From IMG/VR virus record IMGVR_UViG_2547132271_000004: DNA of 15,420 nucleotides, one strand, 5' to 3'. Shown one piece after another: positions 4,261-14,959 of this stretch (its first letter is position 1; every line of letters starts with the position of its first letter). The stretch is from a virus (taxonomy: Duplodnaviria > Heunggongvirae > Uroviricota > Caudoviricetes). The notes under the pieces were generated by a model. The model did no database searches and was not told the DNA's origin. It saw only the letters and a list, made by a program, of their open reading frames with translations. The position numbers and the translations under genes are program-made.

Positions 4261-4468
4261 GAGCACAATAAGTAACCGAAGGCGGAATTCCGCCCTCGGT
4301 GCTCACATATGAGAAACGATATTTCTTACACCGATACCCTTTATTTGGGTATCGCGAGTAAGCCCCAAAATCTGGGTGTTACTCTTACTACCCAAACTAC
4401 GGGTAGTTTCATAGTCGAGTTGCAGATCTGCAACTCGCCACCAGTTGCTAAGTGCATTTTTGCACTTT
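4261..4468. other. Cluster of five consecutive, sequence-distinct stem-loops in non-coding DNA downstream of the packaging operon
   Basis: Inverted repeats read directly: CCGAAGGCGG/CCGCCCTCGG around a GAATTC centre (4277-4300); CGATACCC-N7-GGGTATCG (4332-4354); ACTACCC-N7-GGGTAGT (4387-4407); perfect palindrome CGAGTTGCAGATCTGCAACTCG (4416-4437); AAGTGCA-TTTTT-TGCACTT (4450-4468). Confidence 0.6.
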
Positions 4469-9012: not shown

Positions 9013-9573
9013 TCACAACCCCGCCAGCTCAGACCAGCGATGACGATTATTTCCTGTCGGACGTAATTCAGGGTGCTGTGCAAACAACGAACGGTGGGCA
9101 ATCTCCACGCCAGATTCTGGATAAGCAGGCATCGACGTTATTGTGATTTCACGGAGTTCAGCGGCGGTTACGGTACGCAGATACGGTTTTTGCGCGATAC
9201 TCCACTCCTCGCATAATGCGCGAAAACCAAAGCTCATTCCTGTAATGTCGCCACGCTCCACCAGCGTAAGCACATCTTTTCCAAGCTGGGTATCCGGCGG
9301 TGTCAGTTCAAAACGTAACCCGGTGTTATCCTCAGTCAGTACCAGAGTGCCGGATTTGGTGCGCCCCAGCAGTTGGGTATAGTCATGCTCATACAGGCAG
9401 CGCACATCATTACCCGTCGCCAGATAGTCAGCAAAAGCCCCCGGCGTGAACTGTTCGCGGAATTCGTCCCAGATAATTTCTGAAAGGCTGTTCCAGCGAA
9501 CGGCATACCCCACCAGCTTTTTATTGCTGGCGGTCAGTTCAGATGTGCGGATTTCAAAATCGGTGTTTTTCAT
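9013..9573 (-). CDS. Prohead maturation protease (HK97 family)
   Basis: 186-aa ORF with HK97 protease-like segments (YEHDYTQLLGRT, GMSFGF, ITSMPAYPESG). Confidence 0.85.
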   Translation of the reverse strand: MKNTDFEIRTSELTASNKKLVGYAVRWNSLSEIIWDEFREQFTPGAFADYLATGNDVRCLYEHDYTQLLGRTKSGTLVLTEDNTGLRFELTPPDTQLGKDVLTLVERGDITGMSFGFRALCEEWSIAQKPYLRTVTAAELREITITSMPAYPESGVEIAHRSLFAQHPELRPTGNNRHRWSELAGL

Positions 9574-9593
9574 CGGTGTACTCCATAAAGCTG

Positions 9594-9614
9594 AAAAAGG
9601 AGGCCGCAGCCTCC
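9594..9614 (-). terminator. Intrinsic terminator/attenuator between the capsid and protease genes
   Basis: On the minus strand: GGAGGC-UGCG-GCCUCC hairpin followed by UUUUU (plus-strand AAAAA GGAGGC CGCA GCCTCC), lying between the capsid stop (9628) and protease start (9573). Confidence 0.55.
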
Positions 9615-9627
9615 TCCTTACTCATGA

Positions 9628-10797
9628 CTAGCCAGCTTTCATTTCCAGAATTTTGATGGCGTTTGAATCCACCACACCACCGCCCAGATATTTATCCGTG
9701 TGGACCTTGTAGAATCCGGGTTCAGTAATGTTGTCCGGTCGGGTGCGAATCCCTGTTACATGATCAACGATGAAATAACCACGACTGAAATCGCCAACCG
9801 CTAGCGGTGCTTTTCCTGCGCCGATGTCCGGCATGGACTCCAGGCAGTAAACAGGACGACCAAGCAACATATCCGGCGCACCTTCTTTAAGGCTGTCGCG
9901 CCAGATATAATCGCCGTTCTCATTTTTCAGCTTCTGTAGTGTCCCTGCCGTGCCCGAGTTCATCACCCAGACGGCATTTTTGCGGTATTTCGCTTTCAGC
10001 TTGTAGAGAATGTCGATCAGTTCGTCCGCTGTAATGGCGGTTCCACTTGCCGCTACTATTTTTTCAATGGTGCCAAAAGCGCGGGTTTTGTCACTGGTCG
10101 CCGCACGGGTGTAAGCCATGAAGCCTTTCGGCTTGCCGTTACCGTCGCCATTAACAAAATCATCCTCTTCGGTGCTGGCGAACGTGTCGGCAATTTCGGA
10201 GGATAACCAGCCCAGAATATCCACCTCTGAAAAATCCAGGATTTCCTGCGTGGTTTTCGGGTAGGCGTAGATCGGATTCAACTTGATGGTTACGCGTTCA
10301 ATTTTCGGGGTGTTGGTTTCACTGCGTGCGCTGCCTTCTGTGCCTCGTCCTACAGTTGCGCCGCCAGTGGAAACCAGTTTCTGAAACTCATTTGATTTTG
10401 CGGTCTTCACGGTCGCGATCACGCGCATAACACTGTCATCCTGTAGCTGGCGCATGACTTCGCGATCAAGCTCAGGAATTACGGTATATCCGCCATCCCT
10501 GCCGCTGTCAGTGCTGGTGGACAGTGATCGCACATCTCCGGTTACGATGTAGTTACGCAATTCATCAGATGATAATTTCTGGATGCCCGTTCCTGGCTTG
10601 CTGCGTTCTTCATCAGCCACAGACTCGAGGCGGGAAATTTCTGTGTCGAGGGCATCAGCTTTTGCACGCAGTTCATCAAACTGTTTGCCTTCTTCAGCGT
10701 TCAGACTACGGTTTTCACTGTCGGCTTTTTCCAGCAGGGATCGCATCTGGTTTTTCAGGGCGTTTTTTTGCTGGCGGAGTTCGATTAATTTCTTCAT
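9628..10797 (-). CDS. Major capsid protein (HK97 fold) with N-terminal coiled-coil delta/scaffold domain
   Basis: 389-aa ORF. The first ~100 aa are a charged coiled-coil (LRQQKNALKNQMRSLLEKADSE...), followed by an HK97-like capsid core. Confidence 0.9.
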   Translation of the reverse strand: MKKLIELRQQKNALKNQMRSLLEKADSENRSLNAEEGKQFDELRAKADALDTEISRLESVADEERSKPGTGIQKLSSDELRNYIVTGDVRSLSTSTDSGRDGGYTVIPELDREVMRQLQDDSVMRVIATVKTAKSNEFQKLVSTGGATVGRGTEGSARSETNTPKIERVTIKLNPIYAYPKTTQEILDFSEVDILGWLSSEIADTFASTEEDDFVNGDGNGKPKGFMAYTRAATSDKTRAFGTIEKIVAASGTAITADELIDILYKLKAKYRKNAVWVMNSGTAGTLQKLKNENGDYIWRDSLKEGAPDMLLGRPVYCLESMPDIGAGKAPLAVGDFSRGYFIVDHVTGIRTRPDNITEPGFYKVHTDKYLGGGVVDSNAIKILEMKAG

Positions 10798-11627: not shown

Positions 11628-11922
11628 ACCGTTTCACGGGATCTCGCATTCTGCGCCTTATTTTCCACAGATATTCGATCATCGCTTCCACCTGCTCACG
11701 GTTGGTTGCGAAAATTTCCCCGGTCAGTGAGCTACGCAGAAAATCATGATGATCCACAACAAACAACGCATCGGAAGAAAGCAGACGGCGATATTTTTTT
11801 GCTGTCATGGTTTCCAGATCATCAAAATCATGAAACTTTTTATGTTGCTGGACTTCTTCAAATGTCACTGGAATGTCCCCTCTGTTGTCGCTAAAACGGT
11901 ATGTTGTCCCCGTACGGATCAT
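11626..11922 (-). CDS. Hypothetical protein
   Basis: 98-aa ORF ending at the bidirectional terminator. It overlaps the SSB 3' end by 32 nt, so the real start may be internal. No family recognised. Confidence 0.45.
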   Translation of the reverse strand: MIRTGTTYRFSDNRGDIPVTFEEVQQHKKFHDFDDLETMTAKKYRRLLSSDALFVVDHHDFLRSSLTGEIFATNREQVEAMIEYLWKIRRRMRDPVKR

Positions 11923-12316
11923 CGTGCTGACCCGTCTGCTGTTTTGCCCTGTTCAGTGCGTCAGTGGCCTGCCCCTGCTGGCCTTTTTTGCCGCCCGGTC
12001 GCGCTGTTCGCGCACTGATCACGCTGTCTGCGATAACCTGCCAGCCCTGCCGCGTTTCGCCGTTCTGGCCTGTCCACTGGCTTACCTGCATGTTACCCGC
12101 CACGCTCACCAGTTCGCCTTTGTGGTGTTTTGCCAGTGCGTCGGCCTGTCTGCCAAACGCCAGGACGGATAACCACATCATCGCCGTTCCGTCATCTGCC
12201 TGGCTGCACGGAAGGGGGACCGCCATACTAGCCATCGTCATTTGTGTACCCTTGCTGGTGGTCTTTAACTGCGGGTCAGCCACCAGCCGCCCGTAAGCCG
12301 CTATCTGTGCTGTCAT
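11891..12316 (-). CDS. Single-stranded DNA-binding protein (SSB-like OB fold) with SSB-type C-terminal tip
   Basis: 141-aa product aligns by eye to the E. coli SSB OB core (MWLSVLAFGRQADALAKHHKGELVSVAGNMQVSQWTGQNGETRQ vs [44 protein letters not shown]). It has a Gly/Gln-rich linker and ends DDPYGDNIPF, like the host SSB tip DDDIPF. Confidence 0.75.
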   Translation of the reverse strand: MTAQIAAYGRLVADPQLKTTSKGTQMTMASMAVPLPCSQADDGTAMMWLSVLAFGRQADALAKHHKGELVSVAGNMQVSQWTGQNGETRQGWQVIADSVISARTARPGGKKGQQGQATDALNRAKQQTGQHDDPYGDNIPF

Positions 12317-12558
12317 GCTGTCTGCTCTCCGGTTTTAACGTTGATGGTTGTCACCTGTTCCGCTTCGGCAATCTCCCGTTCTGTCAGCGTGGCAAAGTTT
12401 GCAGCTGCCGTTGTCATGAATGCGCTAATCAGTTCGGGAAGTGCTTTCGCATATCCTTCCCCGGCGTTGCGGTCGATGATTTTTATCGACACCCTTAACC
12501 AGTGTTCCGTCAAATCAAGGGCGTGCGATTGTGATTTTTTTGTGTGCTTCGCTGTCAT
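12313..12558 (-). CDS. Hypothetical small protein adjacent to the origin
   Basis: 81-aa ORF whose stop overlaps the SSB start (ATGA). No family recognised. Confidence 0.45.
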   Translation of the reverse strand: MTAKHTKKSQSHALDLTEHWLRVSIKIIDRNAGEGYAKALPELISAFMTTAAANFATLTEREIAEAEQVTTINVKTGEQTA

Positions 12559-12603
12559 AGGCTTTATCTCACAGCAGTAAATTAAAATTTTTGCGTTTTA
12601 ACC

Positions 12604-12832
12604 CTTCACCTGTTCACCTTTTGATATTTTCCATTTAAATTCATACTGTTAAGGGGTGAACAGTTTCACAAAAACTATTCACCAACTGTTCACCACTGTT
12701 CACCCTTGAAGCTCAATAAACAACCAAAAAGGTGAACAGTGAATAGTTTGGTGAACAGTTCATAAATAACTGTTCACCCTATAATATACTGATATAAAAG
12801 ATAATTATGACAGGGTGAACAGTGGTGAACAG
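12604..12832. repeat. Iteron-type replication origin: about nine copies of GGTGAACAG in both orientations flanking an AT-rich segment
   Basis: GGTGAACAG or its complement CTGTTCACC read at about 12611, 12655, 12686, 12696, 12731, 12750, 12770, 12814 and 12824. AT-rich spacer ATAATATACTGATATAAAAGATAATTATGA at 12781-12812. It sits immediately 3' of the primase-helicase gene. Confidence 0.7.
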
Positions 12833-12845
12833 TTATTCAATAAGT

Positions 12846-14663
12846 TTAATTTTTGCTATCGTCATTAGTGACCGATACACATGATGGCATCCAGTCTTCT
12901 GATTCCTCCGTCAGTGTCACGTTTGAACGAAAACCGTGCTTCGTTTTCCGTTTCATATACTCCCTGCCATATTCCGCCATTGCCCCCGGCATATCTTTAC
13001 CGAAGCGCGTCAGTGTTACAGGTTTACCAAACCCATGTGCCCTCATATAAGCCAGATAGGCATGATAGAGATACCTGCGTGGGCTGAATGGCACAATTTC
13101 AGCATTACCCACTAACAGGCCATCACACATTACCGACGCCATGAGATAGCCGCAGAAGTCCACCAGCGAATCCCCCTCTCGCTTTATCGCCAGTGCTTCT
13201 TCAGATTTCTGCTGCTCATATAACAGGCGTCTGGCTTCGTCCTGGTCAGCAAACCGTGTAAGCAGATGGCGAATCACTACCGCCAGCTCACCTTCTATTT
13301 TTTCCGCCAGCATTGGATCGCGTTCGTTCTCCGGTACAACTTCCGAAAAATTGAATATCACCCGACGACGTGAGATCCCCCCGCTGCGGTCACTGAATGA
13401 CATGGCGTTATTGTTAACCGCCAGCACTACTGCCGGAATACGCGTTGAGTAGGGGGCTTTGTGTTTCGGGTCAATTGCCACCTTGTCACCGCCTGTAATA
13501 GCCTTAATCCCTGCCCCATCACCAGCGTAGCGGGTCATATCCGGCATGATAATCAGCGAAAAGCCAACCACTAACGCGCGTTCCCTTGCATCTTCCAGCG
13601 CCTTCATGCTTGCCGATACTGTGTTGGCCTTACCCGCCAGCATGGTGCAAATCTCCGCCATCACGCTTTTACCACTTCCCCCTGGACCTGTTACCTCAAT
13701 GAATAACTGCCAGTCGTACCGGTTCGCCAGCACCATGAATAATGCAGCCAGTACGCGATCCGCCTTGCGGTCATTCTCAGCCACCGAACGGCGTAACCAC
13801 TTCCAGAAATTCGGCGCATGTGTTGCCAGCGTTTCCCCCTCTGCTGGTGGGCTGAAAGGTAATTCACTGGCAATTAACAACCAGTCGTTTTTGTTATGCT
13901 CCCGAAAATTACCTGTTCTGGTATCAAATACCCCGTTACTGAATCCAATCAGGTTACGGGCTGTATTCCCCATTACAGGCAAACTTAACTTCATGGTATC
14001 GACCGCCGATTTAATGGCGTTCTGCGAATAGCTGATCTCCGCATCAATGAAAATCTGTGCCATAGCTCGCTGTAATTCTTTATCCTGTACTGGCTCCCAT
14101 ACAACGCCGTTGTAATGGTGAACAGTGTCAGAGTCAGCATGAATCGCCAGTTCACCGCCATAATGTGCCAGGAGAACTTCGCCGCGTTGACTTGCTCCCA
14201 TCTGGTTAAGCGCCAGTGATGAAGCGTTATCGTCTTTTACCCGCTCTTTTTTCTTTACAGGCAGTTCAACTACCTTTTTCTTTTCCGCCTGCTCTGCCCG
14301 TTCACGTTCCAGATATTCGCGCCAGTTCTCCCGTTTCTGGCTGTGCATTCCTTCAGGGTAATAATCAGCATCCCTGACACCTGCCACTGCCAGTTTCTGC
14401 CCGATGGTATTAACAAGCCCCGGACGCAATAACCCCGCCTGATAGAGACGCACGCGATAGCGTCCGTCCGGTACGATTTGCAGGTTGTCCAGTTCGGCAA
14501 GTTGTTGCTCTCCAAGCCAGACAGGTGGCACGTTATCGCCAGCCAGTCGCCCGTCCTGTTCCTGCCACTGTTTCGCATGTGCCCACGCATCACTACCCGC
14601 AAAAATGATGACTTCCGTCATTTTGTCACGCGGCTGGTGTTTTAAATTTGGCGCTTTTTTCAT
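12846..14663 (-). CDS. Primase-helicase / replication initiator (P4-alpha / D5-type C-terminal P-loop NTPase)
   Basis: About 605 aa from MKKAPNLK (ATGA overlap with the upstream gene; RBS GGAGAG). Walker A VTGPGGSGKS and Walker B-like LIIMPDM, with a D5_N/primase-C-like central region. Confidence 0.85.
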   Translation of the reverse strand: MKKAPNLKHQPRDKMTEVIIFAGSDAWAHAKQWQEQDGRLAGDNVPPVWLGEQQLAELDNLQIVPDGRYRVRLYQAGLLRPGLVNTIGQKLAVAGVRDADYYPEGMHSQKRENWREYLERERAEQAEKKKVVELPVKKKERVKDDNASSLALNQMGASQRGEVLLAHYGGELAIHADSDTVHHYNGVVWEPVQDKELQRAMAQIFIDAEISYSQNAIKSAVDTMKLSLPVMGNTARNLIGFSNGVFDTRTGNFREHNKNDWLLIASELPFSPPAEGETLATHAPNFWKWLRRSVAENDRKADRVLAALFMVLANRYDWQLFIEVTGPGGSGKSVMAEICTMLAGKANTVSASMKALEDARERALVVGFSLIIMPDMTRYAGDGAGIKAITGGDKVAIDPKHKAPYSTRIPAVVLAVNNNAMSFSDRSGGISRRRVIFNFSEVVPENERDPMLAEKIEGELAVVIRHLLTRFADQDEARRLLYEQQKSEEALAIKREGDSLVDFCGYLMASVMCDGLLVGNAEIVPFSPRRYLYHAYLAYMRAHGFGKPVTLTRFGKDMPGAMAEYGREYMKRKTKHGFRSNVTLTEESEDWMPSCVSVTNDDSKN

Positions 14664-14959
14664 TTCTGCTCTCTCCACGCGGCAATCATGTTTTTTAGTT
14701 CCTGTAGTTTTTTATCAACATCCATACATGACACATGGTTATTTCTGGAAAGCGGGATTTCCCGACTGAATCTGCTAATAAAGATCTCCACGTTCAGCGA
14801 ACTAAGAAATGAATAGCCATCACGGATAAAATACACACGGTCAAACATCAGTTCTTTTACCGTTACTCTGTTACCGTTCTTATCCAGATAAATAGCGCCG
14901 GGGATAATTTGGGGGTGTGCATAACCGCTGGCAGTCAAGCCAGATAAATACGTTCTCAT
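14660..14959 (-). CDS. Hypothetical protein (AT-rich cassette gene B)
   Basis: 99-aa ORF with RBS GGGGA upstream. Its stop overlaps the primase ATG. Visibly AT-rich. No family recognised. Confidence 0.55.
   Translation of the reverse strand: MRTYLSGLTASGYAHPQIIPGAIYLDKNGNRVTVKELMFDRVYFIRDGYSFLSSLNVEIFISRFSREIPLSRNNHVSCMDVDKKLQELKNMIAAWREQK

Follow-up and report, generated by a model that had tools for sequence, protein, structure and literature searches.

We identified a cluster of short repeats at positions 12604–12832 that is very probably the replication origin of a capsid-forming phage-inducible chromosomal island (cf-PICI) of Escherichia coli, and that belongs to the family formed by the ori and crr sites of satellite phage P4; throughout, the window refers to the whole 15,420-nucleotide stretch of DNA that was analysed. 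We observed the repeated sites and their layout, their homology to P4, the selective conservation of the sites among relatives, and their co-variation with the DNA-binding domain of the protein encoded alongside. A preliminary description of this DNA had proposed a satellite- or PICI-type iteron origin bound by its own initiator, a proposal that is upheld computationally by the similarity of the initiator to PDB entry 1KA8, by the identity of the repeat with the P4 type 1 repeat, and by the correspondence of the layout to that of the P4 ori. It gains further support from the conservation of the iterons relative to the spacers, from the concerted change of iteron and predicted initiator wing, and from the layout of PICI origins as given in PMC6092414.

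The repeats form two inverted modules with AT-rich spacers

Within 12604–12832 we found nine exact copies of GGTGAACAG, one copy with a single mismatch and two partial copies, distributed over both orientations. A motif search placed the exact copies at 12610, 12686, 12696 and 12770 on the minus strand and at 12655, 12731, 12750, 12814 and 12824 on the plus strand, and the single-mismatch iteron, GGTGAATAG, at 12675–12683 on the minus strand; the partial iterons, cttcacc at 12604–12610 and AGTGAATAG at 12738–12746, were read directly from the sequence. When up to one mismatch was allowed, the 15.4-kb window contained 17 sites, 10 of which fall within 12610–12832, compared to an expectation of 3.17 ± 1.69 (largest value 8) from 200 dinucleotide-preserving shuffles, none of which attained 17. 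The earlier count of about nine copies of a 9-mer in direct and inverted orientation is therefore borne out. The GC content over 12550–12850 is 30–38%, compared to about 50–60% for the flanking genes, and only 13 bp separate the end of the first iteron from the stop codon of the replication gene (12846–12848, minus strand). No Rfam family reached its gathering score anywhere in the window.

The cluster comprises two modules of ~105 bp that are mutually inverted, each consisting of two tandem iterons, an AT-rich spacer of 35 or 36 bp, one inverted iteron, an 11-bp gap and three iterons. In the orientation of the initiator gene, and writing '<' for CTGTTCACC, '>' for GGTGAACAG and numbers for gaps in bp, the arrangement reads < 1 < [35 AT] > 11 < (partial) < [26] > 1 > 2 > 11 < [36 AT] > (partial). 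Module A (12731–12832, minus strand, the orientation of the initiator gene) begins with tandem iterons at 12824–12832 and 12814–12822, continues through its 35-bp spacer (12779–12813) to the inverted iteron at 12770–12778 and, beyond the 11-bp gap, ends with an iteron at 12750–12758, the partial copy at 12738–12746 and an iteron at 12731–12739. Module B (12604–12704, plus strand) has the same layout on the other strand, as seen in inverted repeats I1, I2, I5 and I13. Here, the partial copy at 12604–12610 and an iteron at 12610–12618 are followed by a 36-bp spacer (12619–12654), an inverted iteron at 12655–12663, the 11-bp gap, and iterons at 12675–12683 (the GGTGAATAG variant), 12686–12694 and 12696–12704. 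The two modules are 66% identical to one another with their iterons in register, and a 26-bp linker (12705–12730) forms the centre of the inverted pair. The length of this linker is the same in the relative L062, described below, and the central distance differs in the other relatives compared.

The AT-rich spacers may act as unwinding elements. The 30-mer at 12779–12808, within the module A spacer, is the least stable of the window, with a nearest-neighbour dG of -27.0 kcal/mol relative to a mean of -41.6 and a standard deviation of 3.5 kcal/mol over all 30-mers of the window, and the module A spacer is accordingly our predicted DNA-unwinding element. The module B spacer, whose 30-mer at 12624–12653 ranks fifth among the least stable of the window, is a second candidate. 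The preliminary description had a single AT-rich stretch bracketed by the repeats; the AT-richness holds, but it is divided between two spacers in two inverted modules.

Of 5426 complete E. coli genomes, 669 contain the iteron-bearing region (12590–12845), which is without any RefSeq annotation and is found at a median of 2 and a maximum of 12 places per genome.

The modules are related to the ori and crr of P4

In the P4 genome record (NC_001609), TGTTCACC, which is the reverse complement of GGTGAACA, is labelled 'ori type 1 repeat' in both the rep_origin (9086–9809) and crr. The P4 genome contains 11 exact copies of this 8-mer, a number that no shuffle attained, and the P4 ori contains five exact copies of GGTGAACAG, including the 19-mer GGTGAACAGTGGTGAACAG, which is identical to 12814–12832 of the window. 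Judged by its sequence, the repeated unit of the window is the P4 type I iteron, the classical binding site of the P4 alpha protein.

The likeness to the P4 ori extends from the shared iteron (GGTGAACAG / TGTTCACC) and the identical 19-mer to the layout, as the type I repeats of P4 (9310–9413) comprise two tandem iterons, a 35-bp AT-rich spacer, one inverted iteron, a gap and three tandem iterons, with the gap measuring 12 bp in P4 and 11 bp here. Aligned with their iterons in register to the reverse-complemented P4 ori, module A is 61% identical over 114 columns (P4 positions 9310–9414) and module B is 69% identical over 112 columns. The first two-thirds of each 120-bp P4 crr repeat also align with modules A and B. 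The preliminary description had called the short unit and its two-orientation layout distinctive, which does not hold, because both correspond to the type I iteron and the ori layout of P4.

Similarity of the spacers gave a more divided picture. Against the P4 ori spacer, the module A spacer outscored 997 of 1000 shuffles, while the score of the module B spacer was equalled in 0 of 1000 shuffles when compared with the P4 crr spacers and in 123 of 1000 when compared with the P4 ori spacer. On this sequence evidence we treated modules A and B, the P4 ori and the crr repeats as one module family. Because the signals are mixed, with overall identity pointing to ori and the module B spacer pointing to crr, we labelled neither module 'ori' or 'crr'. 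A blastn comparison with P4 detected no DNA similarity outside the modules, and the kinship to P4 is visible only when the modules themselves are aligned. In a blastn search of a phage collection, the sole match was the satellite-like vB_KppS-Ant.

The arrangement in the window nonetheless differs from either P4 site. The P4 ori is a single module located 2.1 kb upstream of alpha, beyond regulatory genes, and requires crr 4.5 kb away, whereas the window contains two back-to-back modules and no distant partner. The P4 crr (NC_001609 4291–4590), like the present cluster, is directly 3' of the initiator gene and also represents a duplication of an iteron module, with spacers significantly similar to that of module B. 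However, the crr repeats are direct and 60 bp apart, while the modules described here face opposite ways with 26 bp between them; iterons are arranged differently in the final third of the crr unit; and a terminator lies between alpha and crr, while no terminator-like hairpin was detected within 12200–13000 of the window. The initiators of both systems share a homologous winged-helix origin-binding domain and a superfamily-3 (SF3) helicase.

Taken against the features of a P4-type replicon, the window has type I iterons in both orientations and encodes a 1KA8-like C-terminal domain and an SF3 helicase in the same polypeptide, but lacks both the combination of zinc ribbon and Toprim primase and the bipartite arrangement of ori and distant crr. 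Because these two strict features of P4 are absent, we classified the cluster as a compact, mirrored P4-type origin rather than as 'the P4 replicon'. The two-site logic of P4 may be kept in compact form within the two-module cluster.

The adjacent gene encodes an alpha-like initiator

The gene that ends next to the cluster encodes an alpha-like replication initiator on the minus strand (12846–14663), with the ATG annotated by RefSeq at 14663 being its most likely start and giving a protein of 605 amino acids; a longer mechanical ORF (12846–14678, minus strand) begins with a GTG at 14678 and encodes 610 amino acids. The protein consists of a degenerate Toprim-like N-terminus, a D5_N/DUF5906 SF3 helicase and a C-terminal winged-helix origin-binding domain. 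Its Pfam matches are D5_N (1.5e-13), DUF5906 (1.3e-10) and Pox_D5 (4.6e-13), and it matches TIGR01613, 'primase, P4 family', at 3.5e-27, under the curated cut-off. Overall, it is 46% identical to P4 alpha (alignment A1), with the Walker A motif GPGGSGKS invariant across the alignment.

Residues 502–598 of the 610-aa ORF, encoded by 12885–13175 (minus strand), matched residues 2–99 of 1KA8 chain A, the solved origin-binding domain of P4 alpha, in a phmmer search of the PDB (E 3e-24). Within this domain, the codons at 12924–12959 (minus strand) encode YMKRKTKHGFRS, the predicted beta-hairpin wing, whose tip reads T-K-H-G and which is our candidate specificity determinant. An AlphaFold (AF2) prediction of this domain, built from a shallow alignment, had a pLDDT of 40 and gave no usable position for the wing; the placement follows standard winged-helix topology and PMC2777425.

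P4 alpha combines a DnaG-type primase, an SF3 helicase and a C-terminal winged helix (PMC2777425). Residues 1–170 of the initiator matched no Pfam family even at E ≤ 5. The N-terminus of P4 alpha, by contrast, matched Zn_Ribbon_Prim (4.8e-19) and, weakly and under the curated cut-off, Toprim_3 (E 0.056). In alignment A1 the zinc ribbon is deleted from the initiator and no acidic residues lie opposite the Toprim motifs of P4. By our own reading, the initiator sequence 'IIFAGSD' would have Ala in place of the catalytic Toprim Glu, although A1 aligns this segment otherwise, and we read the N-terminus as a degenerate Toprim remnant. The neighbouring gene had previously been described as a primase-helicase; it is indeed adjacent, at 13 bp, and a helicase, but because neither a zinc-ribbon nor an active Toprim primase domain is detectable in its sequence, its product is better named a helicase/origin-binding protein.

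The cluster lies within a capsid-forming PICI

The 4.4 kb surrounding the cluster matches the chromosomes of E. coli SMS-3-5 and many other strains at 99.7% identity. In SMS-3-5, the element spans about 14 kb between thiM and rcnR and begins with genes for an integrase, a DUF6387 protein, an HTH regulator, an Icd-like protein, a DUF4222 protein and a 'DNA primase family protein'. The iterons come next, and are followed by genes for a small protein, SSB, major capsid, prohead protease, portal, head-tail connector, HNH, TerS and TerL, with no tail or lysis genes according to the RefSeq annotation of SMS-3-5. A Phage_capsid match in the element scored 1.9e-71. The gene set that defines capsid-forming PICIs has been described in two studies, neither of which maps a cf-PICI origin (PMC10085698; bioRxiv 10.1101/2022.09.08.507074), and the element contains this set as given in PMC10085698. 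One member of the class, EcCIEDL933, replicates after helper induction, with its origin left unmapped in that work (bioRxiv 10.1101/2022.09.08.507074).

Immediately downstream of the cluster, the small protein (12313–12558, minus strand) has 81 amino acids, corresponds to phrog_1231 and matches no Pfam or NCBIfam family, and the single-strand DNA-binding protein (SSB) is encoded at 11891–12316 (minus strand). The order of initiator, iterons, small protein and SSB is also found in three other satellites, L164, L165 and L166. As its position after the origin is kept in these satellites, the 81-aa protein may be a replication accessory factor.

Some of these satellites exhibit variations in what surrounds the replication module. 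L164, from E. coli O157:H7 NE122 (NZ_CP038319.1 1783850–1802105), carries the initiator, origin, small protein and SSB with an origin that is 95% identical, but is located inside a prophage terminase gene, which it splits into two partial CDSs, and contains a protease/capsid fusion gene. As this satellite differs and yet has the same module, the replication module is common to several satellite types. In L165 and L166 the module is found alongside PerC and ProQ/FinO genes. The sole match from the phage collection (L002; LR881103.1, 'Escherichia phage vB_KppS-Ant', 16.5 kb) was deposited as an induced phage; it carries the cf-PICI gene set together with a tape-measure gene and the same two-module origin with GGTGAACAC/G iterons, and its sequence suggests a satellite, or else a chimeric assembly, and not a complete phage.

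Iterons are conserved and co-vary with the predicted initiator wing

To compare close relatives, we used 80 viral-contig loci whose initiator proteins are 88–100% identical and which yielded 53 distinct versions of the region. Of 90 iteron positions, 3 varied in at least 3 of the 53 variants, as did 27 of the 133 positions in the spacers (Fisher p = 1e-4), and when the iteron mask was shifted circularly, no more than 4 of the 223 shifts gave a score as low as that observed. Counting positions that varied in any variant gave no significant difference (Fisher p = 0.48, Mann-Whitney p = 0.33), this measure being dominated by singletons that a small number of gapped sequences contribute; only recurrent variants separate iterons from spacers.

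A broader set of 80 loci from different species, at 48–87% identity, included Raoultella, Klebsiella, Pectobacterium, Serratia, Xenorhabdus, Photorhabdus, Erwinia and Zobellella, and almost all of these loci have 7–11 sites resembling iterons in the 400 bp that follow the gene. The layout < 1 < 35 > 11 < 2 < ... > 11 < 35/36 > recurs with small central differences in L002, L094, L099 and L162, whose iterons are GGTGAACAC in the first two, GGTGGAGAC in L099 and GGTGTATAG in L162. Across the 80 species, distinct wings are paired with distinct iterons, including GGTAGACAC, GCGGACAGT, GGTAGATAG and GGTATACAC among others. Thus, the wings KRKTKxGxR and RKKSKxGIR occur with GGTGAAYAG/C, IRKKSTKGNMR with GGTGGAGAC, KRKQCTRGPDKGRTI with GGTAGACAC, KKAESKKKATRGRIQ with GCGGACAGT, LTRTIKGRRQ with GGTAGATAG, and RKERKNRGMV with GGTATACAC.

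Co-variation among such distant relatives is confounded by shared ancestry, and the case rests mainly on one close pair at the sequence level, with one further comparison in addition. The pairing of the window with L062 (IMGVR_UViG_2784132061_000002) is free of this confounding: positions 4331–4680 of L062 are homologous to 12500–12845 of the window and its initiator is 95% identical, yet every homologous site reads ATGAACAG (nATGAACAG, the first G not being conserved) instead of GTGAACAG/GGTGAACAG, with the positions of the sites unchanged. Of the few substitutions that the C-terminal domain of the L062 initiator carries, six lie within KRKTKHGF -> KKRTTAGV, in the predicted wing, and by these sequences L062 constitutes a natural specificity switch. 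The other comparison is with L158, whose wing tip is TNAG, with no Lys, and whose iterons are nGTGAACAS, in which the first G is likewise not conserved. Because L165 has the wing KKRTKEGV and yet retains the iteron GGTGAACA, the candidates for specificity narrow to K580/H581 at the wing tip.

Comparison with PICI and plasmid origins

The cluster also resembles PICI origins, namely those of EcCICFT073 and the SaPIs. SaPI initiators come from another helicase/Rep family. In work on E. coli PICIs, origins are described as following the rep gene on its 3' side, with sets of iterons located on both sides of AT-rich DNA, and a rep-ori fragment of EcCICFT073, the one island for which this is shown there, replicates autonomously (PMC6092414). 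Measured against that description, the present cluster is directly 3' of its initiator gene, 13 bp past the stop codon, and its iterons bracket AT-rich DNA twice, at the spacers 12619–12654 and 12779–12813. The likeness thus covers the position of the origin relative to rep, the iteron sets around a presumed AT-rich melting site, and the pairing of an origin with the island's own initiator. The host element is itself related to PICIs and shares their left-hand module (PMC10085698). The mirrored pair of complete modules is where the cluster differs from PICI origins.

Iteron origins of plasmids provide a more remote comparison. Plasmid iterons such as those of pSC101, R6K and P1, which are bound by winged-helix Rep proteins, are typically direct repeats of 17–22 bp, and Rep recruits the host DnaB. 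The units described here, in contrast, are 8–9 bp long and face either way, and an SF3 helicase forms part of the initiator itself.

Alternative explanations

We considered whether the cluster might instead be a crr-type, cis-acting replication enhancer that binds the initiator while DNA synthesis starts elsewhere. Position alone would suggest this, because the P4 iteron cluster at the equivalent site, directly 3' of alpha, is crr rather than ori, with the ori 4.5 kb away, and the module B spacer is closer to the crr spacers than to the ori spacer by the shuffles given above. Such a reading calls for a second site, however, and no other cluster of GGTGAACAG-like sites was found in the ~14-kb element or its flanks when the 32-kb SMS-3-5 locus was scanned. 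Furthermore, both modules match the P4 ori over their full length (2-35-1-11-3), while the crr repeats diverge in their last third, and the least stable DNA of the window sits within the cluster. On balance, we regard the enhancer as improbable.

The only other pair of sites lies within the initiator gene, at 14117–14125 (plus strand, exact) and 14148–14156 (minus strand, one mismatch), in inverted orientation. We considered this pair as a second origin resembling P4 'ori2' and rejected it: the sites encode the conserved residues GGEL and TVHH, their synonymous positions vary in relatives, they do not occur in P4 alpha, and they show no switch in L062. By these sequence comparisons the pair is a by-product of coding and not a second origin, and its codons account for it where the enhancer is concerned.

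A regulatory role was also weighed, in which the repeats would serve mainly as operators for the downstream genes (the 81-aa protein and SSB) or for read-through from the initiator gene, with no replication start. Iterons of plasmid replicons often double as operators, and by this general knowledge, together with the location of the cluster between co-oriented genes that no terminator-like hairpin separates, such a role has some appeal. Yet a scan of both strands of 12200–13000 turned up no sigma-70-like promoter, although this is a weak test, and some twelve sites that keep a conserved helical spacing, together with two AT-rich spacers of 35 bp, exceed what an operator needs. The full-length layout is, moreover, homologous to a mapped origin, the P4 rep_origin, and as regulation is compatible with origin function, it would not exclude an origin in any case. 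Operators as the main function are therefore very unlikely in our judgement. We give hardly any credence to a packaging site (cos/pac), a recombination site (att) or a chance low-complexity feature. Repeats and AT-rich DNA do occur at packaging and recombination sites too, with nothing specific to them here, but the integrase gene lies ~5 kb off at the far end of the element, the HNH, TerS and TerL genes lie ~6 kb off on the other side, and the sequence of the repeats tracks the DNA-binding domain of the initiator rather than terminase or integrase. Chance is ruled out by the shuffles and by conservation in hundreds of genomes.

Proposed mechanism of initiation

For the cluster as an origin, we infer the following steps, from binding of the protein to the supply of primers. 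By homology and co-variation, the winged-helix domain of the alpha homologue would bind the approximately twelve GGTGAACAG sites in the two inverted modules. P4 alpha has been reported to bridge ori and crr. The bound protein, possibly bridging both modules, would then melt an AT-rich spacer, most likely that at 12779–12813, as suggested by duplex stability and by the precedents of P4 and PICIs. The SF3 helicase domain of the same protein would load at the melted spacer, and the SSB of the element would coat the unwound strands. Priming would probably be carried out by host DnaG or by the helper phage, as the initiator is without a recognisable zinc-ribbon/Toprim primase.

Several of these observations can be joined in a broader reading, which we put forward only tentatively and which combines a specificity code in the wing, cross-talk between satellites through a common iteron, and loss of the primase together with compaction of ori and crr. 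In the proposed code, the wing-tip Lys (T-K-x-G) may pair with the 5' GG of GGTGAACAG, and loss of this Lys may pair with nATGAACAG in L062 (TTAG) and with nGTGAACAS in L158 (TNAG). Enterobacterial P4-like satellites, PICIs, cf-PICIs and helper-embedded satellites have an identical iteron in common, so that co-resident satellites could fire or titrate each other's origins. Rare concerted switches of the iteron such as that in L062 would let a satellite escape this and become an orthogonal replicon. The present lineage would have lost the primase that P4 alpha has and drawn ori and crr together into one mirrored 230-bp unit that needs priming by the host or helper.

Significance

The cluster is, as far as its sequence can tell, almost certainly a further instance of an origin type already known from P4. 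It leaves the current understanding of origins unchanged, and its value lies in a clean annotation, which locates the probable origin of a satellite replication module that is very common in E. coli. That cf-PICIs and related satellites would use a P4-type pair of initiator and origin links two satellite families that are usually kept apart. As a cell often holds several satellites of the same specificity, the region matching at a median of 2 places per genome and at as many as 12, cross-talk between their origins is possible. The natural iteron switch of L062, which is accompanied by few protein changes, may offer a ready system for studying how origin specificity evolves, and for building orthogonal satellite-based vectors.
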